This document shows positions 14,661-62,034 of a stretch of 64,000 nt of DNA, piece by piece. The stretch is from Chiloscyllium plagiosum. Taxonomy: Eukaryota. The notes beneath the pieces are model-generated. The model was given only the letters and a program-made list of their open reading frames with translations, did not search any database and was not told the DNA's origin. Every line of letters begins with the position of its first letter. Position 1 is the stretch's first letter. A program made the translations under genes and the position numbers. The stretch is taken from contig NC_057720.1 of assembly GCF_004010195.1 (NCBI RefSeq), positions 48,338,880 through 48,402,879 on the forward strand, read 5' to 3'.

Positions 14661-15327
14661 CTTCTCTCATGTCAAATGTATATGCAGAAGGCATTTGTAA
14701 TCGGCTGTGATTTTTTTACTCTCTCGGTAGCAAGTTTAGGTAAGCAAATGTGAAAGACGATTGTTTTCTTTGTTAAGGGCAAAGTATGTGTGTATTTCTC
14801 AATCCAGTCATCTCCTAATACGGTTGACCTCGTCTTTTTTCTATTTTATTTAGTTTTAAAGAGAAATACTACATCAGTGCATTATACATATGCATATTTT
14901 AAAAAAACTTATGGCTATCATTGCATTGAAAAACATGCCGTGTGATATGTAGGCCGAGAAAGATAAGTAGCGCTTACTGATCATCGTATTCTTGTGAAGT
15001 GGTTTTTATGTAGAAAATTATCTCCAGACTGCTGTAATCAAAATAGCAACAGTTGCTAATGAAAAGGAAGAAAAGTTTAGGTTTTTTTTTAATCATTGAT
15101 GCTCAGAGAGTGAACGTTTTTTAAAATTGAAATAATCTTCTTTTTACTTTGCCAGTTTTATCTGTGAACATCGTTGCCTTGGAAACCTAATTATTAAACA
15201 ACAATTTAACTGTCGTGATCAATAAATTATTGAATAAAGATCGTATTTTTCAAAGAACTTTGTCTTTTATTATGATATTCGTATTAACTAGCTAACATAT
15301 ATTCGCTGCTAAACAGGCCTTATGTTA

Positions 15328-15459
15328 ATATAAAACAAAGAACTGCGGATGCTGGAGATCTGAAACAAAAACAAATTGCTGGCGAAACTCAGCAGAGCGG
15401 GCAGCATCTGTGGGAGAAAGCAGATTTAACGTTTGAGTCCGGTGACTCTTCATCAGAAC
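15328..15459 (-). mobile_element. Penelope-like (PLE) 3' terminal fragment with degenerate hammerhead motif
   Basis: Minus strand reads CTGATGA-A-GAGTC-ACCG-GACTC-AAAC-GTT...ccagcatccgcagt. Flanked by a 15-bp degenerate TSD (15313-15327 and 15460-15474, 13/15 identical). Confidence 0.75.
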
Positions 15460-18400
15460 ACAGGTCTTATCTTAGTCGTGTGCATATTAATGATGACACG
15501 TTTGCTTTTACGCATACAACTGATTTGTAAATGTCTACTGAGATTATCACTAAAAAGATATGTTTTAAAATGTTAGATTAATCAAAAAATTTATTTTGAA
15601 TCCTTATATCTCATTAAATGTGGGATATTATATATCATATATCATAAATATATATTGGCCTAGTCAGCTGCGTCCATGCCCCCGTAAATGAACCAGAAAA
15701 AACCCCATAGATTTTAATAATGTAGCTGGACAACTGAATTAACAAGCTGTTGTTCTAACGTGTATTACAAGTTGTCATTTCTGTTCTGACATGACAATGT
15801 AGGCTCTTAAGATGTGAAATTCTGCTTTTGTTAGACACCGTCGTGGATTGTCAGCAAATTGCCATAGAAAAGTCTGAGAAGCTGATTATATACCGTGCTT
15901 CAAACCTGCTCAGGAATACATCAATTATTTTTGATCAGCCATTTCTTGTAAACGTTACTATCCGCCTGGATATATGAACAGATCATATGCTACGTTGTCT
16001 GACCAATAAAATGCGTGCGCTTATGGTATAGGGCGCATGGGAACTGAAAACCCCGTGCGATTGAACGTATTTTTGGGTACGACGCAAATGATATTAGGAC
16101 AATATATACAATATAACTTTTTAAACTGTAAAGAACGCTTGTGAACTTTTAACGCATTTTAACATTGGATGAGCCAGCTTTTTGTAATTCACATACAGTT
16201 TTACTTCAAAAAGTTGAATATATTTGCATGGATTATTAGCAAGTCCAAAAATAATAGGCACAGGAATTAAGCTTAATTTATTGCATTCAGCTGCACACCA
16301 CATAGTATATAACATCCTGTACAAACTAATTACACCAATCATCTTCCAAACTGTAATCAGACTCAGTTTATGCATTAAATGTAGGAAGGCACATACAGTT
16401 TTTGTGCACACCATACGGACGTACCGCACACGCACACAAAAAAGACTAATGCAGTGTAATACTTGAGACACTTGCTTTCATCGCTGCATTTCTTAAATCG
16501 TCACGGGTAAATGTTATTGATTTTTCCATAGATTTTTATTTACGTTTCAAAGCTGGTTTGTCAAACGTGTAAAAATAAAAATCATACTTTTGGTTTCCCC
16601 TCTTGCCGGTTACAGTTACGACACTCAGGAATATATTTGATCTGTTGCCTCGCGTCTTTTAATAAAAAGGTTCTCACTGCAGATACACTGCAGATCAACA
16701 AGAGCAGCAGCCCACAAGTACGCCCGAAGAACTTCGGAACATACATCCACCACCATCGTTATGCTGTTATGAAGACATGGCTCTCAGGGATTTCACTGTT
16801 CCTTATTTCTGCAATTTCATATCAATCGTAATCAGATATGTTTCGTTAAAATAATCTCTGACACCGAGGAGATTGCAGCGAAAAAGAAAGCTTTTCGACT
16901 CTTTACAAACAAGGCAATGTTAAAGTGGAAAATAAAGTCTCAACAAAACTAGACGCTGCGACAGCACGTACAAAGCGAGCTGACGTTTACTAAAATAGAT
17001 CACAATGCAAAATCTGTCCGGCATTATGTAAAAAAACCCAACAAACACAGCATTGAATCACTCTAACGCATGGAATCAACAATTTTCTCCTTAATTGTAT
17101 GAATCCATGACACTTGCGGAAATGTCCCTGTCGATTTGGCGCTGGAGATATTGATTTGAGGACATTCCAGAACAGGGAGTGAGAAAGACAAAGTCTTTGC
17201 ATTTTTGTTTTTCAAAACTATTATATTAAGATCTCAGATCTGATGTTCCCACAGGTCAATGCCACAACTAGAGGGCTCTAATAGCAACAAGTAAAAAGTG
17301 ATTTTCCTGATTTTGGAAAATGTTGCGAGAGTTGAATTACCCTCCCCCAGTTACAATGGTGCATTCCGCCGCGTAGTTTTTTTAAATCATTTTGCTGTTG
17401 TAATGTTTTGTTTTTCTCCCGAAATTTTGGCATTAGAAGTAGAATTATTGCTTTTCTGAAGCAATGGTTGAAAAGGAGACTCTATTAAAACAAAGTTCTT
17501 TACTGTGCTTTTCCTCCCTTTTCACTCTGTCGGCACCCGTAAGGAGCGCATTCGAGGGATTTCTTGCTAAAATGGAGTCGAGAGTTCAATAAATAGTCAC
17601 AAATTTCCATTAATTCTCATTTAGATTTTGAAATAAATCATGGCAATTGTGAGTGAAATGAAGGTGTTCACAATTAAGTGGCGATTTACTGACGCAAATA
17701 AAGAAATATATATGAATACTTAAAGGGAAGGACTGAACCGTCAACTTAAACGTTTAATCGGCAACCAACATTTTCACACTGGTTTGGAAATAATAATTCG
17801 GCCCCAGATGCCGATAACCATGGGAGCATTAAAGTTCAACCAGACAGTATCAATAAGAGGTTTGTTTTAAAACCACATCGTTGCCACGAAAATAGAAGGG
17901 AAAGTTTTTTTGCTTGAAAAACAAACTTCTTTGTTTTCCGAGTTTAAGTCGCAGCTTTAAAAAGTTTTAAAGTTTCGTTCTGGATAAAGAGTATTGGTCC
18001 TATTCATTACTATGCAATGATTCTCGACCGTATGTTTTAAGACGGCGAATGAAGATTTTAAACTTCGATACTTCACTAATTATCCAGCATGGAGTATTGC
18101 AAATTCAATATTTACGTGCGCTTTTCTATCTTGTTCTGCAGCGTTAATTTTAAAGAAAGATACTTTGCACAGCTTTATTGGGACAGACTAGCACGTTTCG
18201 ACGACCTAGTTTACTTTTAACTTTCTTTGAATAAATCAATTTCGCAATCCATGAAAGTTTTAAACCACCCCTCGGTTGTGCTAACTGCCTGAATCATATT
18301 CTGCCGTGAGTTTGTCACATGCGTAAAATTAAACAAAGGTTAGACTTCAAAAGAATATTTCAGTTGAATTAAATTCGAGCCCAGTTTATAGCGCATACGT

Positions 18401-21400
18401 CTGTTTACTACACACAGACACCTGCATCGTTATTTATTCTTAAAATACACGATTTACGACAACTGATTTCTATAAATGCTACAATTCCACGCATAATTTT
18501 ACCCTAAAAGATTTAACCAATTTCTTCTAAGAGCGACTTTAATGTCTTCTGTTTCAATGTGAGCAATAGAAATTAACATTTAAACAATTTAGTTATTTCA
18601 AGTTGCAGGCAATTTGTGAAATTATTTTGTATAAACAAGAAGTTAACCATTTCTGCGCACGTATAATTCAACAAAGGGGTGCGATATCAGATATGATGTG
18701 ATGAGTATCTTCGCTACTCATTAGACATAGGAATAAACTTGGGTGGAAATGCTGGACGAACTGGGAATCAAATCTATCCGAACTATTACAGACACACGAA
18801 TGCATTATTTAAGTTTTGTTTTTATACAGGACAGTTATCCTAATTAACGGAAAACGTGTTTTTGTTAATTGTATATCAAGCAATGATAAATTATTTTCAA
18901 ATTATATCTTAAATAATAATATGAAATCCCACTCATTTCATGGCTAACCTCAAAATATATTGTGTTGTTGACAATTCTAAACATTCAGCTCCCAAACTAA
19001 ATTATCCTCGTTTTTGCCAGGGTAATTTAGCAGACATGAAATTAACTACAGATTCCCGCGTCACTTTTTTTTATCAAGGAGCTAAACATGCAATCACATG
19101 TAAATTACCTTTTAATGAACAAAAGTCAGGAATTATTTGAGGCAGTATCTTCGACAGTTTCAACACTGATCATGATTGGGAATATAAATAAATTACCTCC
19201 ATTTATTACCTATAAAATACACCAATCCAGAGAACAAGTTAAATTGCGCACCCCATTTTTGATTATGAAGTATTAACAATATGAAATAGAATTTAAGTGA
19301 AAACAATAGGATAGGTTAATTTCCTTTATTTCTTTCGCGTGTGCAAGTTTAAAGACAATAGAACTAGACCTCGATTCCTTATGTACAGGATAAGCATTGA
19401 TAGTTGAACATTTTTTTCAAATTAAAAAATAACTTTTATATTAAATCCGTAATGTGCATCTGCCATGTCGTTTTTTAAAATTTGGGTACTAATGAATTGT
19501 GCTCACTACTCATCAGTGACAACAGATGATTACAGGGTGCATCGATGATCAGCATATTCATATATGTTTAACCTGGAACTTGCATTGTTAAACATACGCC
19601 CATTACATTTCACTAGTAGGTACAAAACTAAACGATCACATTTTAAAATTTCGTTACAATTCATGACTTAGTACGCAGTATGAAACTATTTTTTTCTTCA
19701 TTTTTATCGCATTTTAGCTGTCAGATGTTTGGAAGTCTTCACTCAAACCTTTCGGAACAAACAGAAATTTAATAATAAAAATGTCAAAGTGGATTATGAA
19801 GCGATGAAAATTCAAATATGACCGCAATTCAAAATATGAACAAATTTTGGTTTACTTTTTTGTGTGTAATCAATCAAGGAAAAAATTACATGTCAACAGA
19901 TAGTATACGTTCTGAGTAATAATCAAGATTACAAGTCGCAAATATATTCATAAACAGTACATGATACAGTACCAAATTTAAGCATAAAGGCCAAATAAGC
20001 TGAACGAACACATTTTTAATCAGGAATAGTTCACCCGAACAGGATTATAAGGGTTTGCAAACTGTTCTAAAAGTAGGATGAGTAAATGAAGAAAACTATC
20101 TGGGCATAAACACTTTGAAATAAGGTTCTTTATGAGTAACTGAGAGATAATAAATAATTGAGAAAGTACTTTAAAAAGTACAGTATCAAAAATATTGACG
20201 ATGCAAACGCTTTTAAGTTTTTAATTATGAAACACTCCAATTTCAGAAATATGGAGACACAAAATGCAAATATCTTTTTTTCCTTTAGTCAGAAATACAT
20301 ATACCGAAGTAATTAGTTTCTATCATAACTTTTAGCAACTGGAAGATCATTGTTTTAGAACAACATTAAACTTTACGCTTTTGGAGAAGTTCGAGTTCAA
20401 CCTATACACTCACATAAATGACTTTGACACCTTTGTAATGTCATTTCTAAAAGAATTGCCAAACTCCATCTGGTCGTTTTACCAAAAAAAAGACTAGAAA
20501 TAATCCTCCTTAGGTAAAGTACATAGCCTTACAATAGATTTAAGTATTTACTAAAAACAAATAATAATAATGGGCATCCAGGTTTAACAGGAAATCAATA
20601 ACTGATATGTCTGATATTTATTTCTCTCACTATGTTTTTGCAACAATATCAGAATTAAAAATTAAATCCGCTGGAGTACTCTTCTTAATTCGCCGATTCA
20701 GAGGGTACAAGACTTTCCTAGGCAATGTTATAGTCCATAGTAGTATCGGCGTTACTTGTTTTTCATTACTAATATTATTATTAATGAATTATTCATGATC
20801 CATTTTGGCGACGATCCCTTTATTCATTTTCCCAGATTTGTTTAGAACATAGAGAATCCATAAAACAAATCAAATCGAATGCACTTATCACAAACAATGC
20901 CAATTATTAAATTTAGCGAGAGATTCCATGCTTTTAAGCTGCATTCCTAATTTTCTTCGTCATTTTTGTTCCTAGTTTCTTTATTTGAATGCTGCTATCA
21001 TGCATTTGTAGGCGAAAAGTTGTCAAACTGCATACTAATCGCGATTATCGTCAGACCATTTTGTTGCCACATTCCCTCGTTACTGCTATCTACGTTCCTA
21101 ACACTGGAAGATCGATAACCCTATACCTCTACTTAGCTGAATTGTAATTAGACATAAAGTAACTCTTTCATTACGGCAAAATAAAGGATTTTGTGTTTTT
21201 TAAATGTTTGAACGAAATAGAAATCGATACAGCTGACAGGTGAAATCAGCAGTTCTTGTGATTTGGCAAGTAAATTAGTAAGTATACCGTACAACAGACT
21301 TAGTCTATTTAATGTAGTAAATCTCAGAATACGACAAATCAACATTTCAGGCAAATTAGCAGGAACTTTGTTAAGTTCTGTAATCTTTTTTTTCGAGAAA

Positions 21401-24400: not shown

Positions 24401-24503
24401 GCTTCAGTGCACTGCTGACATAAGTGCTTGAATGCACAAGGAGAACTCTAACTGCCCTCGATACCTTTTAAGTATTCGGGAGTAAGGCCAAATGTCATTA
24501 CCT

Positions 24504-24640
24504 CATAGAAAATAGGAGCACCTTCGGCCCTTGAGCCTGCTCCGCCCATTCAATATGATAATGGCTGATCATCCAACACAGGACCTTGCTCCTGCTTTCT
24601 CCTAATACCAAATAATTCCTTGAGCCCTAAGAACTATTTC
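24504..24640 (-). mobile_element. Short CR1 LINE 3'-end fragment
   Basis: catagaaaataggagc...cggcccttgagcctgctccgcc resembles the reverse complement of CR1 3' tails found elsewhere in the window. Confidence 0.6.
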
Positions 24641-25349: not shown

Positions 25350-25465
25350 CCATACTTTTGAGGATGCTGCATGATCTATTTCTGACATAATAACAATGGC
25401 TCCACTTCAAAAAGGACTTCACTAGCTGTAAAACCGTCACGAAAGGTGCTATATAAATGCAAATT
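25350..25465 (+). mobile_element. Deu-SINE (SacSINE1/AmnSINE1-like) 3' tail remnant
   Basis: cacttcaaaaaggacttcactagctgtaaa...gaaaggtgctatataaatgcaa. Related remnants occur at ~28280-28330 (+), ~33185-33275 (-) and 60680-60930 (-). Confidence 0.55.
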
Positions 25466-27538: not shown

Positions 27539-27554
27539 GCAGTAGGGGGCGCTC
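27539..27554 (+). promoter_or_regulatory. Candidate CTCF site
   Basis: GCAGTAGGGGGCGCTC matches 12/13 positions of CCASYAGRKGGCR, with its CpG retained. Confidence 0.55.
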
Positions 27555-35329: not shown

Positions 35330-35810
35330 TTCATATCATGCAGCAACGATCCATCTGACCAACCTGTCCATATATTCCTGTAACCTAAGACCTTCTACCA
35401 CTCTATTAACAATCCTGCCAATTTTCAAGTCATCTGCAAACTTATTTACCATACTCCCACATCATCTATATAAACAATAAGGGACCCAGCCCTGATCCCT
35501 GTGGTATGTCACTGGACACTGGCCTCCAGTCACACAAGGAGAAAGTGAGGTCTGCAGATGCTGGAGATCAGAGCTGGAAATGTGTTGCTGGAAAAGCGCA
35601 GCAGGTCAGGCAGCATCCAGGGAACAGGAGAATCGACGTTTCGGGCATAAGCCCGAAGAAGGGCTTATGCCCGAAACGTCGATTCTCCTGTTCCCTGGAT
35701 GCTGCCTGACCTGCTGCGCTTTTCCAGCAACACATTTCCAGCTCCAGTCACACAAACAGACTTCTACCATTATGCACTGTCTCCTACCATAAAGCAAGTT
35801 TTAGATCTGC
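35330..35810 (-). mobile_element. CR1 RT fragment interrupted by a Penelope hairpin
   Basis: Reverse-complement FADD (tcatctgcaaac) and PQGSGLGP motifs. The fragment resumes after the 14-bp TSD. Confidence 0.75.
35538..35744. mobile_element. Palindromic Penelope-derived mini-element with hammerhead motif
   Basis: Perfect 84-bp inverted repeat (35571-35654 and 35661-35744) with a 6-nt loop GAAGAA and a 33-bp unpaired tail (35538-35570). TSD ctccagtcacacaa at 35524-35537 and 35742-35755. Confidence 0.9.
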
Positions 35811-37347: not shown

Positions 37348-37725
37348 AGGTAAAAACAATGACTGCAGATGCTGGAAACCAGATTCTGGATTAGTGGTGC
37401 TGGAAGAGCACAGCAGTTCAGGCAGCATCCAAGGAGCTTCGAAATCGACGTTTCGGGCAAAAGCCCATCAGGAATAAAGGCAGTGAGCCTGAAGCGTGGA
37501 GAGATAAGCTGGAGGAGGGTGGGGGTGGGGAGAAAGTAGCATAGAGTACAATGGGTGAGTGGGGGAGGGGATGAAGGTGATAGGTCAGGGAGGAGAAGGT
37601 GGAGTGGATAGGTGGAAAAGGAGATAGGCAGGTAGGACAAGTCCGGACAAGTCATGGGGACAATGCTGAGCTGGAAGTTTAGAACTAGGGTGAGGTGGGG
37701 GAAGGGGAAATGAAGAACCTGTTAA
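37348..37725 (-). mobile_element. Penelope-like 3' end with pyrimidine-rich UTR and hammerhead remnant
   Basis: Minus strand reads attcCTGATG-GGCTTTTGCCC-GAAAC-GTCgatttc, with a ccagcatctgcagtc tail shared with the other PLE copies. Confidence 0.8.
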
Positions 37726-42960: not shown

Positions 42961-43153
42961 TTAAAAATCACAGCACCAGATTATTGTTAAACAGGTTTAT
43001 TTGGAAGCACTAGCTTTCAGAGCATGGCTCCTTCAGTTACACAGCTCCCCGATGAAGGAGTAGCATTCTGGTGCTTCCAAATAAACCTGTTATAACCTGA
43101 TCTTGTGTGATTTTTAACTTTGTCCACCCCAGTCCAGCACCGGGTCCTCTACA
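42961..43153. mobile_element. Palindromic mini-element from a second Penelope family
   Basis: Imperfect inverted repeat (acaggtttatttggaagcac / gtgcttccaaataaacctgt) with hammerhead remnants (CCGATGAAGGAG; minus-strand GGAGC-CAT-GCTCT-GAAAGCTA) and a ~35-bp tail. TSD tcatgataccacag at 42947-42960 and 43154-43167. Confidence 0.8.
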
Positions 43154-43519: not shown

Positions 43520-46025
43520 CAGACAGGAAAGAGTTGCTGTGGGAGTCCTCAATATTGACTGTGGACCCCATGAATTCCCATTACCTCACATTAAACATGG
43601 GCAAGGAAATCTCCTACTGATTATAATGTACTGTCCTCCCTCAGTTGACAAATCAATACTCCACTTGGAGGAAGCACTGAAGATGGAAATGGTATAAGGC
43701 TGCACTCTGGGTGGGGGATTTTAATGGCTACCACCAAGAGTGACTCAGCAGCAGTACTACTGATCGAGCTAGTCAAGTCCTAAACGGCAAAGCTGCTAAA
43801 TTTGGTCTGCGGCAGGTGGTGAGGGAACCAACAAGGGGGAAAAATATACTTGATTTCATCTTTATGAATCTGCTAGCTGCAGATGCATCAGTCCGTGACA
43901 GTACTGGTAAGAATGACTACCACACAGTCCTTGTGGAGACAAAGTCTCGCCTTCACATTGAGAATTACTTCCATCGTGTTGTGTGGCACTATCACTGTGC
44001 TAAATGGGACAGACTTCGAACAGATCTACCAACTCAAGACTGGGCATCCATGAGGCACTGTGGGCTATCAAAAGGAGAAGCACAATCCGTAACCTCATGG
44101 CCCAGCACTCAATCATTACCATCAAGCTAGGGGATCAACCCTGGTTCAATGGAGAGTGCAGGATCGCATGCCAGGAGTAGCACCAGGCATACCTGAAGAT
44201 GAGCATAAGCAACAAGTGATTGACAGAGCTAAGCAATCCCACAAATAATGGATCAGATCTAAGCTCTACAGTTGTGCCTCATCCAGTCATGAATGGTGGT
44301 AGACAATTAAACACAAATATCACAACCTTAATAGTGGAAGACCCCAGCGAGTCAGTGCAATGGATAATCAGAAGCTTTCTCAGCAATCTTCTGCCTTCTC
44401 CAGTGGTCCCTAGCATTACAGATACCAGTCTTCAGCCAATTCAATTCACTTCTCATGATATCAAGAACCAGTTGGAGACACCGGATACTGCAAAGGCTAT
44501 GGGCCCCAACAACATTCCGGTAATCATACTAAAGAGTTGTGCTCCAGAACTTGCCACTCCCCTAGCCAAGCTGTTCCAGTACAGTTACAACACTGGCATC
44601 TCCCCAACAATGTGGAAAATTGCCCAGCTATGTCCTGTACATAAAAAGCAGGACAAATCCAACCTGGCCAATTACCGCCCTATCAAGCTACTCTCGATCA
44701 TCGGTAAAGTGATGGAAGGTGTCATCAACAGTGGTATCAAGCAGCACCTGCTCAGCAATAATCTGCTCAGTGATGCCCAGTATGGGTTCCACCAGGGTCA
44801 CTCAGCTTCTGACCTCATTACAGCCTTGGTCCAAACATGGACAAAACAACTGAATTCCAGAGGTAAGGTGAGAGTGACAGCTCTTGACATCAAGGCTGTA
44901 TTCAACTGAGTGTAGCATCAAGAAGTCCTGGCAAAACTGGAATCAATGGTATCGGGGCAAAGTCTCTGGTGGTTAGAGTCATACCTGATATACAGGAAGA
45001 TGGTGTGGTTGTTAGAGGTTAGTCATCTCCACTCTAAGACATTTCTGTGGGAGTTCCTCAGGGTGGTGTTTTGGGTCGAAACATCTTTAGCTGCTTTATC
45101 AATGATATTCCCTCCATCATAAGGTCAGATGTAGGAATGTTTGCCGATGATTGCACAATGTTCAGCATCATTTGTGACTCCTGAGATACTGAAGCAATTC
45201 ATGTCCAAATGCAACAAAAACTCGACAATATTCAGGCTTGGACTGACAAGTGGAAAATAACATGCACACCACATAAATACCAGGCTATGACCATCACCGT
45301 TAAGAGACAATCTAACCATCATCTCTTGACAGTCAATGGTGCTATTAACACTGAATCCCTCACTGTCAACATCCTGGGGGTTATCATTGATCAGAAACTC
45401 GACCGGACTCACCATATAAACATAATGATTACAAGAGCAGGTCAGAGGCTAGAAATACTGCAGTGAGTAATAAATCTCTGCAAACTCCCCAAGCCTGTTC
45501 ACCATCTACAAGGCACAAGACAGGAATACTTCACACTTGGCTGGATGAATGCGGCCCCAATAAAACTCAGGATGCCTGACACCATCCAGGACAAAGCAGC
45601 CTGCTTGATTGGCACTACATCCACTAGCATCCACCTTTCATTGCCAATGCTCAGGAGCAATAGTGTGTACTATCTATAAGACGCACTGGAGAAATTCACC
45701 AAACTTCAGGCAGCATCTGGAAAACTGACAACCACTTCCATCTAGAAGGACAAAGGCAGTAGGTATATGGAAACACCACCACCTTCAAGTTCCCCTCCAA
45801 GCCACTCTCCATCCTGATTTAGAAATATGTTGCTCCATTCCTTAACTGTTGCCGGGTCAAAATCCTGGTATTCTCTCCCTAATGTCATTGTGGGTCAATC
45901 CAGAGCAGGTGAATTGCAGTGGTTCAAGAAGGCAGCTCATCACCAGCTTCTCAAGGGCAACTAGGGGTGGGCAGTAAATGTTGGCCAGCCAACGATGCCC
46001 ACATTCCACAAATTGAATAAATGAA
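43520..46025 (+). mobile_element. Decayed non-LTR LINE (CR1/L2 supergroup) with APE and RT remnants and 3' UTR
   Basis: GDFN, PTRGKNILD, KAMGPNNI, NYRPIKLLS..GKVME, QYGF, ALDIKAVF, GVPQGGVLG and FADD motifs, with multiple frameshifts. A related 3' end lies at ~59950-60290. Confidence 0.9.
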
Positions 46026-46206
46026 AATGACTGAACTAATCTAGGCTTGAACTCCACTTTCTTCTCTGCTCTCTATAACCCTTCAATACATTACTAATTA
46101 AAAATATGTCTGATTCTTCCAAATGATCCTTTCAGAGAATTAATTTCTCTTCAGCTCAATTTTAGGATAAGGGGTAGCAGATTTAAAATAACAGCCTCTT
46201 GATCTA

Positions 46207-46826
46207 GAACATAGAATATAGAAAAGTACAGCACAGAACAGGCCCTTTGGCCCATGATGTTGGGCCGAGGTTTAATCCTAATATAAAATATTTTAACTTA
46301 ACCTACGCACACCTCAACTCACTGCTATCCATGTGCATGTCCACCAGTTGCTTAAATGTCCCCAATGACTTTGCTTCCACCATCTCAGCTGGCAACGCAT
46401 TTCATGCATTCACAACTCTCTGCGTAAAGAACCTTCCCCTGACGTCTCCTTTATACCTTCCTCCTAATATCTTCAAACTATGACGTCTCGTACCAGTCAA
46501 TCCTGCCCTGGGGGAAAGTCTCTGGCTATTGACTCTATCAATTCCTCTCATTATTTTGTACACCTCGATCAGGTCTCCTCTCTTATTCCTTCTCTCCAGA
46601 GAGAAAAGTATGAGCTTATTCAACCTTTCTTCACAAGGCAAGCTCTCCAGTCCAGGCAGCATCCTGGTAAACCTTCTTTGCACCCTCTTCAAAGCCTCTG
46701 TATCTTTCTATAGTAGGGCGACCAGAAATGGACACAATATTCCGAGTGTGGTTTCACCAGGGACTTGTAGAGCTACAGCAAAACCTCACTGCTCTTAAAC
46801 TCGATCCCCTTGTTAATGAAAGCCAA
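46207..46826 (-). mobile_element. CR1 3' end nested in an older CR1 (older copy continues ~46827-47035)
   Basis: ORF 46402-46692 (RVQRRFTRMLPGL...RGDLIEVYKIM) and a (TTCTATG)-type tail. ORF 46773-46964 is a second, partly fused copy. Confidence 0.88.
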
Positions 46827-47267
46827 GACAAGAGGAAACATCCTTTCGACATCTACTTTGTCAATGCCATTTAGCATTTTATATACCTCAATTAGATCTC
46901 CTCTTAACCTTCTAGACTCTAAAGAGTATAGACCTAAACTGCTCAATCTCTCTTCATAAGACAAATATCTTATCTTGGAGCAATTTAGTAAACCCCTGCT
47001 GAACTGCCTCCCATATAATTACATCCCAGCTACATTCTCAGTCTTAAAACTACGGTTCATAAGACTATTGTGTGGTAGCCATGACTCAAAGTTATCTCAA
47101 CTTGTATGGGTTAAGGATAGGAAGAGATCCACAATGGCCACTATCCAATGACGCTCCTTGAAATGTGTATGCAAGGGATGTCTTATAAAGATAGCATTGG
47201 ATTTGACTTTATTGACTTCAATACTAACTATTTAGAATCATACTTGAAGATTGGGTGAAGAGGTGAA

Positions 47268-47388
47268 CATCCTGATGAAGGGCTCTGGTTGATTTTCCTG
47301 CTCCTTGGATGCTGCGTGAACTGCTGTGTTTTTCCAGCAACACACTCTCAAATCTCACCTCCAGCATCTGCAGACCTCACTGTCTCCT
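47268..47388 (+). mobile_element. Penelope 3' terminal fragment with internally deleted hammerhead
   Basis: CTGATGAAGGGC at 47272 and the tail ctccagcatctgcagacctcactgtctcc. TSD tgaagaggtgaa at 47256-47267 and 47389-47400. Confidence 0.8.
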
Positions 47389-48697: not shown

Positions 48698-48699
48698 TG

Positions 48700-49305: not shown

Positions 49306-49369
49306 CTACCAACTAGTTTTACAATGAATTAACTCACTTCTTTGGCACCTGTAAAGGTACAAGATAATG

Positions 49370-50190
49370 TTATAGAGTCACAGATTCATACAACTTGGAA
49401 ACATACCCTTCAGTCCAACTCATCCATGGCAAACATGTTTCTCAAACTAAACTAATCCCACATGCCTGTGTTTGGCCCATATCGCTCTAAATCTTTCCTA
49501 ACTATGTATCTGTCCAAGTGTCTCTTAAATGTTGTAACTCTATCTGCATCTGCCATTTTCTCTGGCAGTTCATTCCACATATGAACCACTCTATGTGAAA
49601 AGATAGCCCCTCAGGTCCATTTTATATCTTTCTCCTGTCACCTTAAAAATATACAATCTAATTTTGAACTCCTCTACAAAGAGAAAACACCTTTGCTATT
49701 CACCTTACTTATGCCCCTCATGATTTTACAAACCTCTATAAGATTACCATTCAACTTCCTACGCTCCAGAGAAAAAAAGTCCCAGCCTATCCATCCTCTT
49801 CTTAAAACCCAACCCTCCAGAGCCAGCAACATCCTTGTAAATCTCTTCTGAACTCTCTCCAATTTAATAATATCCTTCCTACAGCAGGGCGACCAGAATT
49901 GTACACTGTACTTGAAAGGTGGTCTCACCAATAACCTCATTGTAAGAGCTCCAAATGATGTCCCAATTCCTATACCCCAATGGCCCAAACAATGAAGGCA
50001 AGCATGCTATGTGCCTTCTTAACCACCCTGCCTACCTGTGACTTTCAAAGAACTATGTATCTGAACCCCTGAGTCTCTCTCTTCGACAACACTACCAAGG
50101 GCCTTACCATTGACTGTATAACTCTTACCTTTGTCTGTCTTACCAAAATGCAATACCTCACATTTTCCTATCTGCCACTCCTCAGCCCAT
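49370..50190 (-). mobile_element. CR1 3' end
   Basis: ORF 49674-49988 (LVRPPFKYSVQFWSP..KLERVQKRFTRML) and a tail at 49370. Confidence 0.88.
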
Positions 50191-50447
50191 TTGCAATGCT
50201 ATTTCATAACAATGTTAGATATGAGCCTTCAGAAAGCAATGGATTTATGACTAGCTAAATTTAACTTCCATATTATGTCAATAATATAGATTTAAATTAC
50301 ATCTGTACTAAACCTGTGACACACTACAAAGCTCCTTCATGAAAAATAAATGATGAAGATAGACAGACCAATCATTTGCGAGGCAATAGAAAACCTGGAT
50401 AGGTTTACATCTGAAGATTTTACATATGTAGTTTTAAGCCAAAAACT

Positions 50448-51070
50448 AACCTTCATTGGTCAGAGCATTGAGTATAGGAGTTAGGAGGACATGTTGCAAC
50501 TGTACAGGAGATTGGCTAGGCCACTTTTGGAATATTGCATTCAATCATGATCTCCCTCCTATCAGAAGGATGTTGTGAAACTTGAAAGGATTCAGAAAAG
50601 ATTTACAAGGGTGTTGCCAGGGTTGGAGGGTTTGAGCTATAGGGAGAGGTTGAATAGACTAAGGCTATTTTCCCTGGAGTGTTGGAGGCTGAGGAGTGAC
50701 CTTATCGACCTTATAAAATCCTGAGGGGCATGGATAGAGTAAAGAGGCAAGATCTTTTCCCTGACATAGGGGAGTCCAAAACTAGAGGGCATAAGTTTAA
50801 GGTGAGAGGGAAAACATTTAAAAGGGACCTGAGGGGCAACATTTTCACGTAGAGGATGATGTGGGTATGGAATGAGCTGCTAGAAGAAGTGGTGGAAGCT
50901 GGTACAATTACGACATTTAAAAGGCATCTGGATGGGTATATGAATAGGAAGGGTTTAGAAGGATATGGACCAAATGCTGGCAAATGGGACTAGATTTATT
51001 TAGAATATCTGGTTGGCGTGAATGAGTTGGACTGAAGGGTCTGTTTCTGCGCTGTACATCTCTATGACTA
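50448..51070 (+). mobile_element. CR1 3' end
   Basis: RPLLEYCIQ, KLERIQKRFTRVLPGLEGLSY and the tail ctgtacatctctatgact. Confidence 0.88.
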
Positions 51071-53005: not shown

Positions 53006-53797
53006 TTGTTATGATTGAGGTTGGAGAGGGTACTGTCTGTCTCGAGTCCTACCATTCCACCGGTCACAACGTAAATTTAAATTAAAATCTTGACATCGAC
53101 AAAATAGTCAGATTTTCCACAGAAGTGATCAGTGACTAGGTGAGAACCTGGCTGGTGAGTGGCATGGGGCTGATTTACATGTATTAACATCTCATTTTTA
53201 TCCAATCGCTCCTCATTTATGTGCAGATAAATATTTTGTCAGGCAGTGGAGAGAACCTGGATGGCACCAATTCTCAATCTGAAAGTCTGAGTTGGTAACT
53301 GATGGCTGCAGCTCTTTGATATATCCTTCAGGAATCTATCTTAGCTATCATTCATAACACTTCGAGTTACACTCCACAGGCTGAAAACTCCTGCACCCTC
53401 TGTCCACAAAAGTTAACATTTGCGAAGCATAAGCCTCACTACATCACTGTGGCATATCTAGGACTCAGTTATTTTACAGCTTACCATGAAAAGGTACCGT
53501 CTTTAGCTTTCTTTTTTAGCTGCAGCGAGAATGATAATCAATCAGACAAATGATGATGTACAGTGAACAAGTAAGATTTACAAGTAAGTTTACCTGTGCC
53601 ACCTATGTATTGTAAGAAGGTTTCCTTTGTCCTTTCTATTCCACTACATCTAGGTGCAGTCAGATCTATTATTTGTTTCAGTTCCAGTTCCTTTGCCATT
53701 ATGCTCTTTCTCACTCTCTTTCTCTTTTCTGCGTCCCTTCTTTTTCCCTTTGAAATACTCTTTCTTCCTTTTCAGTGTCCTTTTTGAAGTAGTCTGG

Positions 53798-53862
53798 TCT
53801 TTTCCTCATTCTGAAATACTATTTTCTTTTCCTCATTCTGAAATACTATTTTCTTTTCCTCA
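53798..53862. repeat. 27-bp tandem duplication (2.4 copies)
   Basis: tcttttcctcattctgaaatactattt twice, followed by tcttttcctca. Confidence 0.9.
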
Positions 53863-54406
53863 AGTTTGAAATTTATCATTCCTAAATCTATTTCCTGTTC
53901 AAGTTTTGGTATTTAATTTTCCTTTTCTATTTCGATTTGCTTCATTTGCATTTGATTTCTAGCTAGTTCAACTGAATTTCCATCTGAATTGCATTCAAAA
54001 ACTCTTCTATATTTTGAATTTTATCTGCTTTCTTTGCATCTACTTTAAATTCTAACTCCAACCTTTTTGCTAATTGAATTAGCCTAGCTTTGATAACTTT
54101 TTTCCCCAAATCATTCAGAGATAAAGCTCCCATCTCCAGAAGGTCGCAGCAATTGATAACGCCATCCTGGTATTGTATACTTTATGCTAATGCACAAGAA
54201 GGTTAACATTTTTCATTTTATACATTTCAATTATTACACTTCCAATTACACATTTCTGGCTTTGAGTTATTGTGAAAGCCTCCAATTTTATGTTATGACT
54301 GAGGTTGGAGAGTGCACTGCCATTCTCTCATCCCACCACATGGTCACAATTTAAATTTAAATGCCTTACCCAGTTAAATGCCAACCAGGTTATTTAATAA
54401 TCAACA

Positions 54407-55575
54407 TTGGATGAGGGTCGAGCAGTGGATGTAGTGTACATGGATTTTAGTAAGGCATTTGATAAGGTTCCCCATGGTAGGCTTATGCGGAAAGTCAGGA
54501 GGCATGGGATAGTGGGAAATTTGGCCAGTTGGATAGAGAACTGGCTAACCGGTCGAAGTCAGAGAGTGGTGGTAGATGGTAAATATTCAGCCTGGAGCCC
54601 AGTTACAAGTGGAGTTCCGCAGGGATCAGTTCTGGGTCCTTTGCTGTTTGTAATTTTTATTAATGACTTGGAAGAGGGAGTCGAAGGGTGGGTCAGTAAA
54701 TTTGCAGACGATACGAAGTTTGGTGGAGTCGTGGATAGTGAGGAGGGCGGTTGTCAGCTGCAAAGGGACTTAGATATGATGCAGAGCTGGGCTGAGGAGT
54801 GGCAGATGGAGTTAAACCCTGTCAAGTGTGAGGTTGTCCATTTTGGAAGGACAAATAAGAATGCGGAATACAGGGTTAATGGTAGGGTTCTTAGTAAGGT
54901 GGAGGAGCAGAGGGATCTTGTGGTCTATGTTCATAGCTCTTTGAAAGTTGCCACTCAGGTGGATAGAGCTTGTAAGAAGGCCTATGGTGTATTAGCATTC
55001 ATTAGCAGAGGGATTGAATTCAAGAGTCGTGAGGTGATGTTGCAGCTGTACAGGACCTTGGTAAGGCCACATTTGGAGTACTGTGTGCAGTTCTGGTCGC
55101 CTCACTTTAGGAAAGATGTGGAAGTTTTGGAGAGGGTGCAGAGATTTACCAGGATCTTGCCTGGAATGGAGAATAGGTCATACGAGGATAGGTTGAGTGC
55201 GCTAAGCCTTTTCTCATTGGAACGGCGAAGGATGAGGGGTGACTTGATAGAGGTTTATAAGATGATTAGGGGAATAGATAGAGTAGACAGTCAGAGACTT
55301 TTTCCCCGGGTACAACAGAGTGTTACAAGGGGACATAAATTTAAGGTGAAGGGTGGAAGGTATAGGGGGGAATGTCAGGGGTAGGTTCTTTACCCAGAGA
55401 GTGGTGGGGGCATGGAATGCGCTGCCTGTGGGAGTGGCAGAGTCAGAATCATTGGTGACCTTTAAGCGGCAATTGGATAGGTACATGGATAGGTGCTTAA
55501 GCTAGGACAAATGTTCGGCACAACATCGTGGGCCGAAGGGCCTGTTCTGTGCTGTATTGTTCTATGTTCTATGTT
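54407..55575 (+). mobile_element. Young 5'-truncated CR1 LINE with open RT frame
   Basis: 325-codon open frame containing YMDFSKAFDKV, GVPQGSVLGP and KFADDTK; 3' tail (TTCTATG)n; CpGs retained. Confidence 0.96.
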
Positions 55576-57127
55576 ATTGATTTATAGTGAAACAGAAATT
55601 ATTCATTAAGGTGTAAAGCTGATTAACACTCAATTTGAAATAGGGAAATATAAATATTTATCCTTCTAAATTAAGATCCAAACATACCATTTCAATGGAA
55701 AAACTTTTCCTGCGAAGATTAATTTTGAAATAAAATCTTTGTCCAATAATTGTTAGTCCTTGAAGGCAAAAAAAAATTCTATGAAATGTTCAAGATAGCT
55801 TTCTGTCATGATCGTGGCACATGTAGGCAGGTGTCATTGAACGCAGGCAATTGTTGTCGGGACATTTGCCGATGCAGTTCATGAAGGAGTAATTGAGAAT
55901 TCAAAGGCTTTTAATGAGCCTTTGATCAGTATTGGATCAGTATTTACTTTATCACACTGCACCCTCCTCATGGATTTCCCCTGAAAGACAAAGGATGAAC
56001 TGTGCAACTTCATTTTCTCAGTGGACTCAACCCCAACTGAATTCCAAGCAAAATTTAACTCCTAACAGCCAGAAACCCAGGCATACAATTTCTGGTAAAT
56101 AAGTTCAAGCAATTAGATTAAGGCATGTCACCTCCAAAATGTCTCTTTTACAAAAATCAAAATCCTTTTAGTGACACCTTTAAAGAAAAACTGTTCTGAT
56201 ATCTATTCAGCCTTTTCAAATTAACCATTGTCTATAATCCTTTCTAACCATCCCAGTATGTTACCCATACATAATGAATATTTATTGCCTGCAAAAAAGC
56301 CTCTGTTTTGGAACCGATCAAATGCCTTCTGGAAATGTCAGTACAGGGCATCCATTGATTCAAGTTTACCTACAGAACATGTTACTTCCTTAAAGAAATT
56401 CAATATATGCCTGCACTGGTAAAACATGATATTCCTTCTGCAAATAGAGGTTGATTCAGCTTGATCACTAGGAACCTAAGTGTCCTGTTACAATATCTTT
56501 ACTGGTAGCTTCTAGCATCTTCCCTATAACAAAAGATTAAGCTAATTAGCCTGTAGTTTCCTGCTTTCCATGTCCCTTTCTTCTTAAATTAGTTGCATTT
56601 GGTATTTTCCAATCTGATGGAACCATCTCTGAATCTAGAGAATTTGGAACTTATGACCTCTCTAGTCACTTGAATTGACATTCTAAAGTGAAGCTCTTCA
56701 GCACCCAGGACTTGTCAACCCCCCAACTCCCAACAATTTGCTTATTAACATTTCTTTGGTGATTCTCGAGTTCCTCCCTCCTTTCCATTTCCTAATTAAC
56801 AACTATCTCCAAGTTGTCATTAATATCCATTGCAGTCAAAGCCTATTAAAAAAAACAGATCTGTTCATTTGTCATATCCTAATTTTCTATCATTAATTCC
56901 TGAAACTAAGTTTCTATATATCCAGCATTCACTTCATTAACTATTTTCTTTCGAAGATATTCATAGAAACTCTTAATATATTTGATTATATTTCTAGCTA
57001 GTTATCTGTTTACTTTAATACTTTCCTTCCTATCCATAATGGAGCTTTTTTTTTGCTTTTTTAAAACTGTTTTGTCCAATCTTTTGACTCGCTACCCATC
57101 TTTGTGCAAGTATATGCTTTTTATTTA

Positions 57128-57830
57128 TAGAGTTATAGAGTCCTACAGCAAGGAGACAGACCCTTTGGCCCAAACTGGTCCATACTGTCCAAAATGTCCA
57201 AATTTCCCTGCACTTGGCCCCTATCCTTCGAAACCTTTGCTATCCATGTATTTGTCCAAATGCCTTTTAAATGTTGTTAATGTACCCACCTCAACCATTT
57301 CTGCTAGCAGCTCATTCCATAAGTATACCACCTGCTGAGTAAAAAGGTTGCCCTCAGGTTCCCTTTTATTCTTTCCCCCTAACTTTAAATTGATGGCCAC
57401 TTATTCTCAATTCCCCAACCCTGGGAAAAAGACTGAGTGCATTCACCTTATCCATGCCTCTCATAATCTTATACAGTTCTAAGATCACCCCTCAGTCTCT
57501 GTCACTCTAAAGAAAAATGTCCTAGCTTGTCCAACCTCTACCTATAACTCAGGCCGTTGAGTTCTGGCAACATCCTTGTAAATTTCTTCTGCACTTCTTC
57601 CGTTTATTAACATCCTTCGTATAGCAAGGTGACCAAAACTGAACACAATACTTCAAGTGTAGCCTCACCAATGTCCTGTAAAACTGCAATATAACTTCCC
57701 AATTTCTTTACTCAATGCCTTGACAGAAGAAGGCCAGTTTGCTAAAAGCCTTCTTCACTGCTCTATCTGCCTGTGACTCCACTTTGAGAGAACTGTGCAC
57801 TTGAAGTCCAAGTTCCCTCTGTTTCACCAT
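57128..57830 (-). mobile_element. CR1 3' end (nested)
   Basis: Tail agagttatagagtcctacagc plus reverse-complement VQFWSP and FTRMLP motifs. Confidence 0.85.
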
Positions 57831-58185
57831 GAGCTTGGTACAATCTTTAACTTCTGAGTGACCAACAAAAAGTGGGCCCCTCCCTTGGGATGTCTGTATC
57901 TTGTGTATTCTGAAATATCTCCTTACATGTGTGCCACCTATTTCATAATATAATTTTCCAGTTCACTTTAGCTCATTCTACTTTCATGTCCTTGTAATTA
58001 CCTATTTTTAAGTTTAGAATTCTAGCCTTGCACCATCACTAAAACTGAATGTAACATTCAGTCACATTATAATTGCTTCTGATTAGAGGTATCTCCATTA
58101 TTAGGCCATTAATTAATCCTACCTAGTTGCACAGTATCAGGTCTTGTATAACTGGCTTTCTGGTTAGCACAAGAAAGTGCTGATA

Positions 58186-58497
58186 GAGTCATAGAGATGT
58201 ACAGCATGGAAACAGACCCTTCGGTCCAACCTGTCCATGCCGACTAGATATCCCAATCTAGTCACACCTGCCAGCACCCGGCACATATCCCTCCAAACCC
58301 TTCCTATTCATATACCCATCCAAATGCCTCTTAAATGTTGCAATTGTACCAGCCTCCACCACATCCTCTGGAGCTCATTCCATACACGTACCACCCTCTG
58401 CGTGAAAAAGTTGCCCCGCAGGTCTCTTTTATATCTTTCCCCTCTCACCCTAAACTTATGCCCTCTAGTTCTGGACTCCCCGACCCTAGGAAAAAGA
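58186..58497 (-). mobile_element. Short CR1 3' end (nested)
   Basis: LFPRVGESRTRGHKFRVRGERYKRDLRGNFFTQRVV; same family as 50448-51070. Confidence 0.88.
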
Positions 58498-59223
58498 TCT
58501 AAGAAATTGTCACAAAAAAAATCTACAAACTCCTCATCTAGACTGTCCTTTCTCATTTGATTTTACCAGTCTGTTGTTGAGAATTAAATCCCCTGGATTA
58601 TTACCTTCCTGAGAAGCATCCATTATTCCTGCCTTTATACTCCATGTGGTTAACAAGGCTGTACACCACCTTAGCGTGTGATTTCTTGTCTTTATCATTC
58701 TTCATTTCTACCTAAACCTCTTGTATATCCTGGTTGACTGAACTTAAGAAATACCTCTCGATAGTGTTAATACCATCATTAATTAATAGAGCCTTCCTCC
58801 ATTTTTGCTAACTTCCTGATCTTCCTAAACATAAGGTACCTTCAAAATTCAGGTCCCAAATGATCTCATCCTGCAGCTGTGTTTCTGTAACAGCTATTAG
58901 ATTGTATTTATTTATTTCTATTTGTGCTATTAATTCATCAATTCTGTTTGAAATGCTACATGTATTCAGATACAGAGCTTTTGGTTTTGTTCTTTTTTAA
59001 CTTTTGTAACCATTACCCACATCTGCTTGTCTGCTCTTAGATCTATAGTCTTTATTCTTTAATCTCTTGCTCTGTTTGTCATTTCCTATATCAACACTTT
59101 GCTCTCTTGTCTAGTCTCTTTTCTTTGAATTATCATATCTTCACAAGTTTGATCACTTCACCCTACTATTTAGCTTAAAATTCTCCTTGCTTCCTTAATT
59201 GCATTGCTTGTTAGAACACCAGA

Positions 59224-59527
59224 GCTGAAAATGTGTCGCTGGAAAAGCGCAGCAGGTCAGGCAGCATCCAAGGAGCAGGAGAATCGACGTTTCGGGCATG
59301 AGCCCTTCTTCGTGAACAATTTCTTTTTCCCTGGTCCTCACTCTGAACAACTTCTCTTTCCTAGTCCCTGTACACCTCCATCCCCCATCACGAAGGACTC
59401 AAAGCCCTCCGCTTCTTCCTTTCCCGCTGTACCGACCAGTACCCTTCCACTGACACCCTCCTTCGACTGACTGAACTGGTCCTCACTCTGAACAACTTCT
59501 CTTTCCAATCCTCCCCCTTCCACACCC
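59224..59527. mobile_element. Rearranged Penelope insertion: inverted terminal repeat with hammerhead plus an internal RT fragment
   Basis: Minus strand GAAGA-A-GGGC-TCAT-GCCC-GAAAC-GTC. Plus strand encodes SLYTSIPHHEGLKALRFFLSRCTDQYPSTDTLLRLTELVLTLNNFSF (PLE RT, motif A toward B). TSD cttgttagaacaccaga at 59207-59223 and 59528-59544. Confidence 0.88.
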
Positions 59528-60679
59528 CTTGTTAGAACACCAGAACCAGCATATTTCTGGTCTAGATCATCCCAATGATGCAGTCCCCACATTCCCCAGT
59601 GTCCCAGAACTGAAACTCACTCTATCACAACTTTGAGCTACTCATTCATCTCTCTAACCTGACTTGCTGTATGCTAATATGACTAACTAAAACTCATCTG
59701 ATTTTCTAATGTCCTTTAGAGAAAAAAAATCAGTTGTTCCTACCTGGACCGGACTACATGCGACTCCATACCCAGAGTAACCTGTTGGACTCTTAACTGC
59801 CCTCCGTAATGACTGGAGAGTTAATTAGTTCAAGGACAACTTCATATGGGCAAGAAGTGCTGGTCCTGATAGAGACATGCAAAAATAAAAAAAACCAAGA
59901 CAAAACAGTGGATTCAATGGCACCCTATCCACCACATCAACATATACTTCCTCCATCACTGGCACAAAGTGGTAGTAACACATACCATTTACAAGATAAA
60001 CTGTAACAACTCATCTGAACGCCTTTGATAGCACCATGACCTCTACAATCTTGAAGGACAAGGGCAACAGACCCTGTCAAGGAAAACATCATCCTGATTT
60101 GGGACCATATCACCATTCATTAACTATTGCTAACTCAAAACTCTGAAACTCCTATCCAATGACAGGAGTTTGTTATGTATCTAAGCAATTTGAATTTCAA
60201 TAGTTCAAGTAGTAAATCATATCGCCCCTCGCATCAGCAATTAGGGATAGGCATTAAATGTTCACACTGCCAGCATCACTCCCATTGCAACAGCAAATTA
60301 AAAAGAGTAATTTATGCCACTATCTTTTCTTGATGTTTATTATTTCATATACAGTCATGCAATCATATTTCAGTAATCCTTTTCAAGGATTAAGAGCCAA
60401 AATGCTTCAGTATTCTCTAATTATTCAGCACTGTGAAACAAGTGATCAGTTTCATGACTTTTCTCAAAACTGCCTCCAGCATTGGAATGTTTCCCTTATG
60501 TTTATCTCAAAAGCCTGTTTCACCACTTACTGGTTAAGCTGATTCTCACTGTGTCATAAACATAGTCTGAAACATCTTGCCACTTTCAATCTATGAGCAG
60601 CTCAGTGTCAATGGAAATCCACTATATTATCTGCACAAAACTGGGACAGACTATAGCTGCAATTTAGAAGACAAGGACA

Positions 60680-60930
60680 AAAAGAATTTGCACTATATAA
60701 TGTGTCTTCAGGACCTCTCAAAGCTCTTCACAGCCAATAAATTACTTGTTGAAGTGTAATCACTTGTTGTTATATAACACATATATAACAATTTGCACAC
60801 AGCAAGACTCCCTAAACAGCAATAAGATAAATGACCAGTTAATCTGTTTGTTGATGTTCACTGAGAGAGAAACATTGGCTAAAACACCAGGTGAACTCGC
60901 CTCTTTTTTTCACTTGTGCATGGTATCAAG
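60680..60930 (-). mobile_element. Deu-SINE (SacSINE1-like) fragment
   Basis: ttgcactatataatg...ttcacagccaataaattacttgttgaagtgtaatcac...gcacacagcaagactccc...aaatgaccagttaatctg. Confidence 0.7.
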
Positions 60931-61038
60931 GACTATAGACACTTAGAATGTGCAATGAGTTAGATCATGTTGACAAAGACAAGAGCAAGAAAACATACAG
61001 AAAGCCAAAGGCTGTTGTGGTCAGGGGCAACTCATCAC

Positions 61039-61112
61039 CTGATGAAGGGCTTTTGTCCAAAACATCGATTTTCCTGCTCCTCTGATGCTGCCTGACCTGT
61101 ACCACTCTAATT
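61039..61112 (+). mobile_element. Minimal Penelope terminal fragment with CpG-decayed hammerhead
   Basis: CTGATGA-A-GGGC-TTTT-GTCC-AAAAC-ATC. TSD gcaactcatcacctgat at 61027-61043 and 61113-61129. Confidence 0.8.
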
Positions 61113-62034
61113 GCAACTCATCACCTGATAATTGAAAAAAACAATGGCTAAGCTATTTTAACAATCTCATCTGCTTGACCAAGCTAAGTGACAGTGCAAC
61201 AATAAGGAAGAAGCTTACATTCATATATAGCCAGGAAGGCTGTATTGGATGAAAAAGTTAAAGATTTATCAGATTCATTTTAAAATGGAATATAGCACTT
61301 CCACAACCCTGATAGCTTAGTACTGTATTAGGAAAGAATTTCTGTCAATGTCTCGTCACACTTTGTATTTGCAACTTTAAGAACCCACTGAAAGTGAATG
61401 CTCATTGTGTTCATCAAAGGTTCAAATGATTATGTTAATAATCACCTGCCAAGTAAGTCAGTACCTTAAAAAAGGACTTACTCCTGCATCTGATTCACCT
61501 GTTTTGCAATGGAATTTTATTTGTTCAAGCACCAGGCTATGTACAAAATACAGTGTAGTCGGAATTATTTGCTAGACCAAGCAAAATTATTTCACCAGAT
61601 TTATATTTCAAATAGAAATTTCAGAATTAAGAGAAGTATTATAAAGTTCATCAATATAATCATTCAAATTAAGTAAATAAAGAAAACTCATCTGGTTGGA
61701 CAGTGTCAATATTATAAATCATAGCACAGTTTACAAGTCACATGTTCATCAATAACTTTGCTACTCATCATTGCAATATCATGGCAAACATTTACATCCC
61801 AAAATTCAGCTCTTCAGTCCTGTTTTACCAGTATTAAGAAAGCATAGAGATCATAATGTGGTAACCATACTTCTTCTATCCACTTTTGGTGCAGCCTATG
61901 TGGCACACCAAGAGTCTAAAGGCATGTACTGTGCTCTGAAATGATCAGACTGCACAAATTCTACTGATTTAGTATACAACCTACCATTCTGCACCTCATA
62001 TGCCTTATTTTCTTTTCATTAACCAAATTTGCTA

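Follow-up and report, generated by a model that had tools for sequence, protein, structure and literature searches.

A 64,000-nucleotide stretch of the Chiloscyllium plagiosum genome (hereafter, the window) carries seven short insertions, at 15328, 35538, 37348, 42961, 47268, 59224, and 61039, all of which are stubs of Penelope-like elements (PLEs) and lie where an earlier note on this DNA had placed them. Judged by their sequence features, they are the hammerhead-bearing, 5'-truncated ends of PLEs that encode an endonuclease (EN), known as EN+ PLEs. In a sample of the genome, the 5' junctions of the families to which they belong concentrate at the front edge of the hammerhead ribozyme motif, and this pattern is real, strong, clade-specific, and found inside a known element class. 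On balance, we favor the reading that the junctions lie there because reverse transcriptase (RT) runs off an RNA that begins at this edge, at a transcription start, with trimming of the product. Junction positions are numbered with the C of the CUGANGA box as 0, so that the expected cleavage site lies at approximately +28.

5' junctions in the genome sample

The sample comprised 160 stretches of 10 kb, placed at round positions along 30 large contigs (1.6 Mb, including 73,239 N; approximately 0.04% of the 3.56-Gb genome). Element arms were anchored on sequence downstream of the cleavage site, making their selection independent of the 5' end, and the references were clipped to exclude flanks derived from short interspersed elements (SINEs) and CR1. 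The search yielded 487 anchors, of which 478 were aligned and 469 lay outside the window; 437 were kept after arms at stretch edges or gaps had been dropped, and 16 arms with shared flanks, belonging to unrepresented subfamilies, were censored. Arm density was approximately 307 arms per Mb.

Among the arms reaching +10, the 5' end fell at -12..+10 in 113/156 arms of family A, 38/49 of family B (an old family, the counts of which are noisy), and 45/69 of family C, the three families found in the window, compared with 0/25 in family D, a control family from outside it. Relative to the nucleotides at risk, family A had 113 ends in 2562 nt within -12..+10 versus 25 in 8223 nt upstream (14.5-fold, p 7e-47), and family C had 45 in 1200 nt versus 12 in 4386 nt (13.7-fold). 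The modal 5' end in family A is at -4/-3, and the upstream edge is abrupt, with no ends at -35..-13 in either family C (0/552 nt at risk) or young A copies (0/483). The uneven distribution of 5' junctions anticipated by the earlier note was thus borne out, as was its view that self-cleavage alone is not the cause: there is no pile-up at the cleavage site, where ends at +26..+30 account for 7/177 arms in A, 4/74 in B, and 3/79 in C.

The sharp upstream edge is reliable in family C and in young A copies and less so in old A copies and in B. For copies at least 88% identical to a reference, 2/81 simulated truncations were miscalled into the peak, which holds 61/82 A and 26/39 C arms of this class. 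Target-site duplications (TSDs) provide a further check. A TSD coincided with the aligned ends in 16 of the 115 unpaired A arms; 14 of these cases were genuine, all in the peak, and two were dropped as local tandem repeats; a control with mismatched flanks gave 0/1109. A TSD was found nearby for 14/67 unpaired peak arms, and we tentatively attribute the missing ones to age, target deletion, or distant partners.

The boundary follows the hammerhead motif in three families whose upstream sequences are unrelated. Families of the Poseidon type, in which the hammerhead is equally good and helix II is longer, are read through, and families with an ATG in helix II, which hence need an upstream leader, lack the boundary. 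Two further sets of D copies, chosen by their 3' part, had 1/25 and 1/20 ends in the peak, bringing family D to 2/70 overall (p 5e-28, with arms not fully independent).

Family assignment and the hammerhead motif

Families A, B, and C are, by the linker that separates RT from EN, Neptune-type PLEs (Neptune or Nematis). Inspection revealed a cysteine-rich Zn linker in each of them (C-x3-CxxC in A, a decayed equivalent in B, and CxxC before EN in one copy of C), and a Zn-finger-like Cx2-5CxxC linker in this place marks the Neptune and Nematis clades (PMC8557442; here and below, papers are cited for the passages that bear on the point concerned). Family D has no Zn linker, and its frame is open from an ATG in helix II through the 3' end; by these features it is Poseidon-type, with the ATG placed as in the Anolis Poseidon element.

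Contiguous long copies encode RT followed by a C-terminal GIY-YIG EN, and two of them (L180 and L015) contain the RT motifs SLYT and YIDD together with EN. The Pfam match to GIY-YIG was weak (E 0.019, below the cut-off) and RT-side fragments had no Pfam match. Families B, C, and D were linked to EN by tblastn or translation, and the long copies of B to both RT and GIY-YIG. The near full-length family A copy, L180:3470-6960, has a long low-complexity Thr/Ser/Ala-rich stretch between the N-terminus of the open reading frame (ORF) and RT, which varies among copies and recalls the N-rich inserts of rotifer PLEs. In family C (L292-L298), the endonuclease stop is separated from the hammerhead by a 3' untranslated region (UTR) of approximately 700 nt that contains (CA)n-rich tracts.

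The 3' ends of all four families fall at two sites approximately 35 nt apart, referred to here as the long-tail and short ends. They correspond to the tail and internal RT start sites described for an Anolis PLE in PMC11167929. In full-length A copies, the 5' UTR directly follows the long end, and the ATG lies approximately 38 nt past it.

The motif has the features of minimal type I hammerheads, namely, CUGANGA, GAAA, and NUH elements, helix II, a palindromic 15.2-16.2, and a short helix I, which is only 3-4 bp. A pair census of intact cores gave C-G at 15.2:16.2 in A and D and G-C in C. The base pairs of helix I and helix II differ among families, yet they still pair, although the families may be related rather than independent events. 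The earlier note had described a CUGANGA-GAAAC-GUC pattern with a core damaged in every copy. A hammerhead-type core is indeed present, but GAAAC-GUC does not hold throughout, because the family of the 42961 insertion has GAAAG-CUA and that of 15328 has GAAAC-GUU; likewise, every window copy has a damaged core, but this is not the rule, both boxes and the NUH triplet being kept in 51/131 A and 26/60 C core-spanning arms. Rfam returned no hammerhead in the window at E<=5, only hairpin matches to microRNA models below their cut-offs, whereas a simple hammerhead descriptor produced 153 hits in the 1.6-Mb sample versus 26 in a Markov control. When natural copies were cofolded, the active dimer was not the minimum-energy form, a result uninformative on activity.

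Fold-back pairs

Many arms occur as head-to-head pairs of the same family, and the composition of these pairs is nearly invariant. Out of 78 such pairs, 69 could be classified, and 65 combine a long-tail with a short arm, leaving one long-long and three short-short pairs; among unpaired arms, long-tail and short ends occur at approximately 1:1. In family D, too, the inverted partner of a long-tail arm carries the short end in 19/23 cases. A single TSD, with a mode of 14-15 bp, surrounds each pair. The pairs indicate that each target end primed a cDNA of its own, and the long-plus-short rule quantifies the known observation of a tail at only one end.

The two arms of a pair also agree in where they stop. 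In A and C pairs, both arms stop by -12 in 62 cases, both pass in 7, and the outcome is mixed in 5 (p 2e-6), whereas independence predicts approximately 16 mixed pairs; long pairs are harder to detect in 10-kb stretches, making these pair counts approximate. The ends of D pairs are uncorrelated (rho -0.18), and 8/20 differ by more than 100 nt. Since D pairs are often very unequal, arms of different length can evidently be joined, and the scarcity of such joins in A and C suggests a feature of the template that both arms share.

At L138:2818-6120, a long-tail arm from -11 and a short arm to about -320 enclose approximately 2.7 kb of unrelated host DNA within one 14-bp TSD, resembling the host-DNA capture described for rotifer PLEs. 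Long-armed inverted insertions (L129, L058, L090, L118, L165) often contain central assembly gaps, and long fold-backs are therefore probably undercounted. PLE stubs also lie within or directly beside other PLE stubs, including those of other families (L011:1589-1980, L124:2856, and L122:2257).

ORF-bearing copies and template jumps

Copies with coding sequence show the same boundary. Of 29 copies chosen by their 5' UTR, 22 reach +10, and 13 of these end at -9..+9. In addition, 13 copies pass directly, by an internal jump, from the region of the ORF start into a 3' arm, and in 10 of them the arm begins at -12..0, about half with 1-4 extra nucleotides. The landing points imply that cDNA synthesis ends at the edge and that the free end is then attached to the target, to the other cDNA, or elsewhere on the RNA. 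The earlier note had suggested that the fold may act as an RT stop or template-switch point; the jumps lend support to the switch, and the stop is less well supported.

Proposed template run-off and its alternatives

RT moves 3' to 5' on RNA, and stops caused by structure are expected on the 3' side of a fold. By the same polarity, an RT at -4 has already passed all helices of the hammerhead. A template that ends there is the simplest explanation. We propose that an element protein would cut both target strands approximately 14 bp apart and that each target end would prime on an uncleaved transcript at one of two internal start sites, which lie 90 and 125 nt inside the 5'-proximal repeat. Both cDNAs would then be extended over 90-130 nt until they reach the 5' end of the RNA at about -12..-4, which is most likely where an internal promoter starts transcription. 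After trimming by 0-40 nt, the free end of a cDNA could be joined to the target, giving a simple stub, or to the other cDNA, giving a fold-back, and a trimmed end jumping to another point on the RNA would produce an internally deleted copy. Longer copies would derive from read-through, multimeric, or circularized templates, and the stubs would be dead ends rather than self-propagating units.

In the Anolis PLE, priming occurs internally at two sites, both strands are extended, and synthesis runs to the template 5' end; RNA to +172, approximately 55 nt beyond the start sites, is needed, and ribozyme cleavage is not (PMC11167929). In a monomeric transcript, the 5'-proximal repeat alone has this additional RNA, and a run-off stub of the length described would therefore be expected. 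The RNA 5' end at the front edge is probably a transcription start; arms of A and C most often begin with an A preceded by a pyrimidine, the arrangement seen at RNA polymerase II starts.

Several observations weigh against run-off. In a poly(A) single-cell RNA run, a library type poorly suited to the question, there was no spot where many molecules begin. Among extra nucleotides at positions where only A or G is possible, G, the sign expected of a cap, showed no clear excess, with 9 G versus 8 A (p 0.33), or 15/25 (p 0.07) when partner-explained cases were kept. In Drosophila virilis, the start site lies approximately 120 nt upstream of helix I (PMC2377424, PMC4209133). Furthermore, 9/22 ORF-bearing copies extend upstream and need longer templates, and the Poseidon-type families have no equivalent pile-up within 560-800 nt, so that the model needs a clade difference. 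The -12..+10 spread is wide and needs trimming or dispersed starts; the arms are not fully independent; and part of the A peak is an artefact, with 19/150 simulated A truncations, mostly in old copies, miscalled into it (0/71 in C). Loose ends before the boundary in RNA run X15 (244 reads) showed low agreement and mirror genomic junctions only; RNA run X16 yielded no aligned reads.

A stronger version of run-off, which we regard as possible but doubtful, is that Neptune-type PLEs form a retrovirus-like strong-stop intermediate despite target priming: both ends would copy approximately 100 nt to the RNA start, and the ORF would be reached only through a jump or a ribozyme-cut, circularized template. 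If so, approximately 70% of events would fail at this point, the genome would hold approximately 450,000 strong-stop fossils, and the hammerhead would serve to make a linear, dead-end template seamless.

Other origins of the edge were considered and set aside. A spliced template is at odds with the lack of an upstream exon common to the peak arms, an AG being present at the edge in family B only; a stop at a branch point, the A at -4, is at odds with exact matches extending to -11. The initiator-like YYA present at -6..-4 in A and B carries no evidential weight, such a pattern being too common.

Unlikely, though the strongest rival to run-off, is an arrest of one or both RTs on a longer RNA by the hammerhead fold, or by a protein- or dimer-stabilized form of it. 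In one variant, a ribozyme dimer keeps the 5' strand of helix I paired with the partner copy, and two coupled RTs may stall together at that point. Such an arrest would explain why the boundary follows the motif irrespective of upstream sequence and why jumps begin at the edge; the similar stop fractions of stubs (~70%) and ORF-bearing copies would be natural for a stop at each passage, and the Anolis ribozyme is protein-assisted (PMC11167929). However, the ends lie 5' of all helices, with no excess on the helices' 3' side, helix I is very short, and the longer helix II of the Poseidon-type families is read through, though by a different RT. The excess of mixed pairs predicted by independent stalls is also missing, a difficulty that only coupled arrest at the ribozyme or ribonucleoprotein escapes.

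Less probable still, the template 5' end could be a nuclease edge, formed when read-through transcripts are trimmed 5' to 3' down to the folded or protein-covered hammerhead, leaving ragged, uncapped ends upstream of helix I. The ends do lie at the 5' edge of the fold, ragged over approximately 10 nt and with no clear cap-G, their position is common to both arms of a pair, and stub sequences are abundantly transcribed in both orientations. This proposal is difficult to reconcile with the weak helices, with the Poseidon-type families that lack such an edge, and with the modal A after a pyrimidine.

A boundary set at the DNA stage appears very unlikely. Here, the element's own endonuclease would nick the intermediate near the ATT at -4, or an antisense template would prime itself at palindromes, or the two cDNAs would anneal at the palindromes of the motif and be trimmed. 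The Anolis enzyme prefers ATT (PMC11167929), the arms at some junctions have overlaps at helix I, at helix II, or at GAATTC, and self-priming has been proposed for head-to-head repeats (PMC3846280, Arkhipova et al. 2013). Many pairs, however, have both arms reaching -1..-7, past the palindrome centres, and are joined bluntly or through filler; each of the two arms ends at a canonical priming site; the same boundary is seen in simple stubs; and no ATT motif is apparent by eye in the TSDs, nor do B and C have an ATT at -4.

Amplification from short masters or circles, as a SINE-like family or as the non-autonomous, retrozyme-like units proposed in the earlier note, is hardly tenable and largely refuted in the sample, despite the very high copy number, the many intact cores, and the existence of PLE-derived retrozymes in vertebrates. 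There are no head-to-tail tandems among 469 arms and none in the window (the sample covers mostly large chromosomes, so that rare arrays elsewhere are possible), and junctions differ at every locus, no junction or flank being common to separate insertions apart from old subfamilies and a single local duplicate. The stubs also terminate at the start site of RT and are therefore missing the downstream sequence required by the Anolis PLE (PMC11167929). A search for circles found one back-joint in 4 reads, in a poly(A) library unsuited to circles.

Insertions in the window

Five of the window insertions belong to family A, one (15328) to family B, and one (42961) to family C. Six are flanked by TSDs of 12-17 bp, and all except the 37348 copy end close to the CUGANGA box, both as described in the earlier note; the 5' ends, in the order of the insertions, lie at -3, +8/-1, -251, about 0/+4, -2, +2, and -1. 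The family B insertion is a simple stub with a long-tail end on the minus strand (15328..15459; -3..+131, C of CUGANGA at 15456), within a 15-bp TSD with 2 mismatches (15313-15327/15460-15474). The first family A insertion is a fold-back composed of a minus-strand long-tail arm (35538..35654; +8..+126) and a plus-strand short arm (35652..35744; about -1..+92), 84 nt of which are identical to the partner arm; the arms meet in a 3-nt overlap at helix II, and the TSD is 14 bp (35524-35537/35742-35755). The 37348 copy is a long A1 arm on the minus strand (37348..37723; -251..+126) that reaches into the 3' UTR and has a 3-nt deletion in the core; no TSD was found within 6 kb.

In the family C fold-back, a minus-strand short arm (42961..43035; +4..about +82) faces a plus-strand long-tail arm (43047..43153) that starts at approximately the CUGANGA box (43049) and has its GAAAG-CUA part deleted, within a 14-bp TSD (42947-42960/43154-43167). 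Two family A insertions are simple stubs on the plus strand. The one at 47268..47388 (about -4/-2..+126) has a 9-nt deletion over GAAAC and a 12-bp TSD (47256-47267/47389-47400); the other, at 61038..61112, runs from -1 to the short end with an internal deletion after +61, and 6 nt of its 17-bp TSD (61027-61043/61113-61129) are microhomology with the element start. The 59224 insertion, taken in the earlier note for a non-autonomous unit of 70-200 bp, is approximately 305 bp long and includes coding sequence: a minus-strand short arm of family A (59221..59311; +2..+93) is followed by an inverted fragment of the PLE RT ORF on the plus strand (59312..59527), with partly duplicated filler and an ORF piece at 59359-59521 that starts SLYTSIP. 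The RT fragment has 69% identity to the full-length copy in L180 (E 1e-12), and the TSD is 17 bp (59207-59223/59528-59544).

The PLE stubs lie upstream of a large coding exon of a nuclear factor I gene at 4440-5048 on the minus strand (Pfam NfI_DNAbd_pre-N, E 2e-26, and MH1). The window also contains decayed fragments of long interspersed elements, which we take to be CR1/L2-like, in both orientations (44220-44909, 46200-46880, 49370-50990, 54400-55580, and 57130-58500), including two RT-like frames.

Comparison with known systems

The element architecture is already known, and we found no published description of a fixed, clade-specific boundary. Our literature search found no paper on a 5' boundary at the hammerhead; subscription papers, Repbase notes, and supplements (e.g., figure S2 of PMC11167929, on genomic copy ends) were outside its scope. 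The EN+ PLE insertions described in PMC3846280 and PMC8557442 have inverted pseudo-long terminal repeats, a 30-40 bp tail, and a TSD, and they resemble the present ones in their 5'-truncated copies, head-to-head inverted arms, one-ended tail, captured host DNA between arms, and RT followed by GIY-YIG. The passages of these papers considered here do not describe a fixed 5' hammerhead boundary or a contrast between Neptune and Poseidon, and PMC3846280 explains inversions by antisense self-priming, whereas the long-plus-short rule points to priming at both target ends.

The Anolis carolinensis Poseidon element PAc (PMC11167929) shares with our families two internal RT start sites downstream of the hammerhead, an uncleaved RNA template, and extension of both target strands, and shares with family D the ATG in helix II. 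It differs from families A-C, which have the Zn linker and, in A, an ORF starting well downstream of the ribozyme; front-edge stops are not reported in the relevant parts of that paper, whereas A-C insertions mostly stop there. The metazoan PLE hammerheads described in PMC4209133 are likewise minimal type I motifs with the same core boxes, a bulged base before helix II, a palindromic 15.2-16.2, and a short helix I, mostly found singly or as pairs on opposite strands throughout the genome. The model put forward there involves cleavage and circular templates; the stubs analyzed here were copied across the uncut site and stop approximately 30 nt further on.

Non-LTR retrozymes (PMC7229834, bioRxiv 10.64898/2026.07.22.740005) are also short, non-coding, hammerhead-bearing, and related to PLE terminal repeats, but the accounts given there define them by tandem units and circular RNA, and tandems are absent here. 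L1 twin priming, as presented in PMC11702581, resembles the proposed process in that the second target end primes a second cDNA, TSDs are 12-18 bp, and the cDNAs are end-joined; in L1, however, the second primer pairs with an internal site through microhomology, so that a different stretch of the RNA is copied, whereas here fixed neighbouring sites are used and the same part is copied.

A fixed 5' boundary that one clade has and another clade in this genome lacks, combined with a near-absolute long-plus-short rule, bears on how PLE insertions are completed and on what the hammerhead contributes, and it yields sharp predictions for an existing in vitro system. It also allows a repeat class of an estimated million or so arms in this genome to be explained without a new element type, and the front-edge boundary offers a testable clue to how the poorly understood PLE class inserts.

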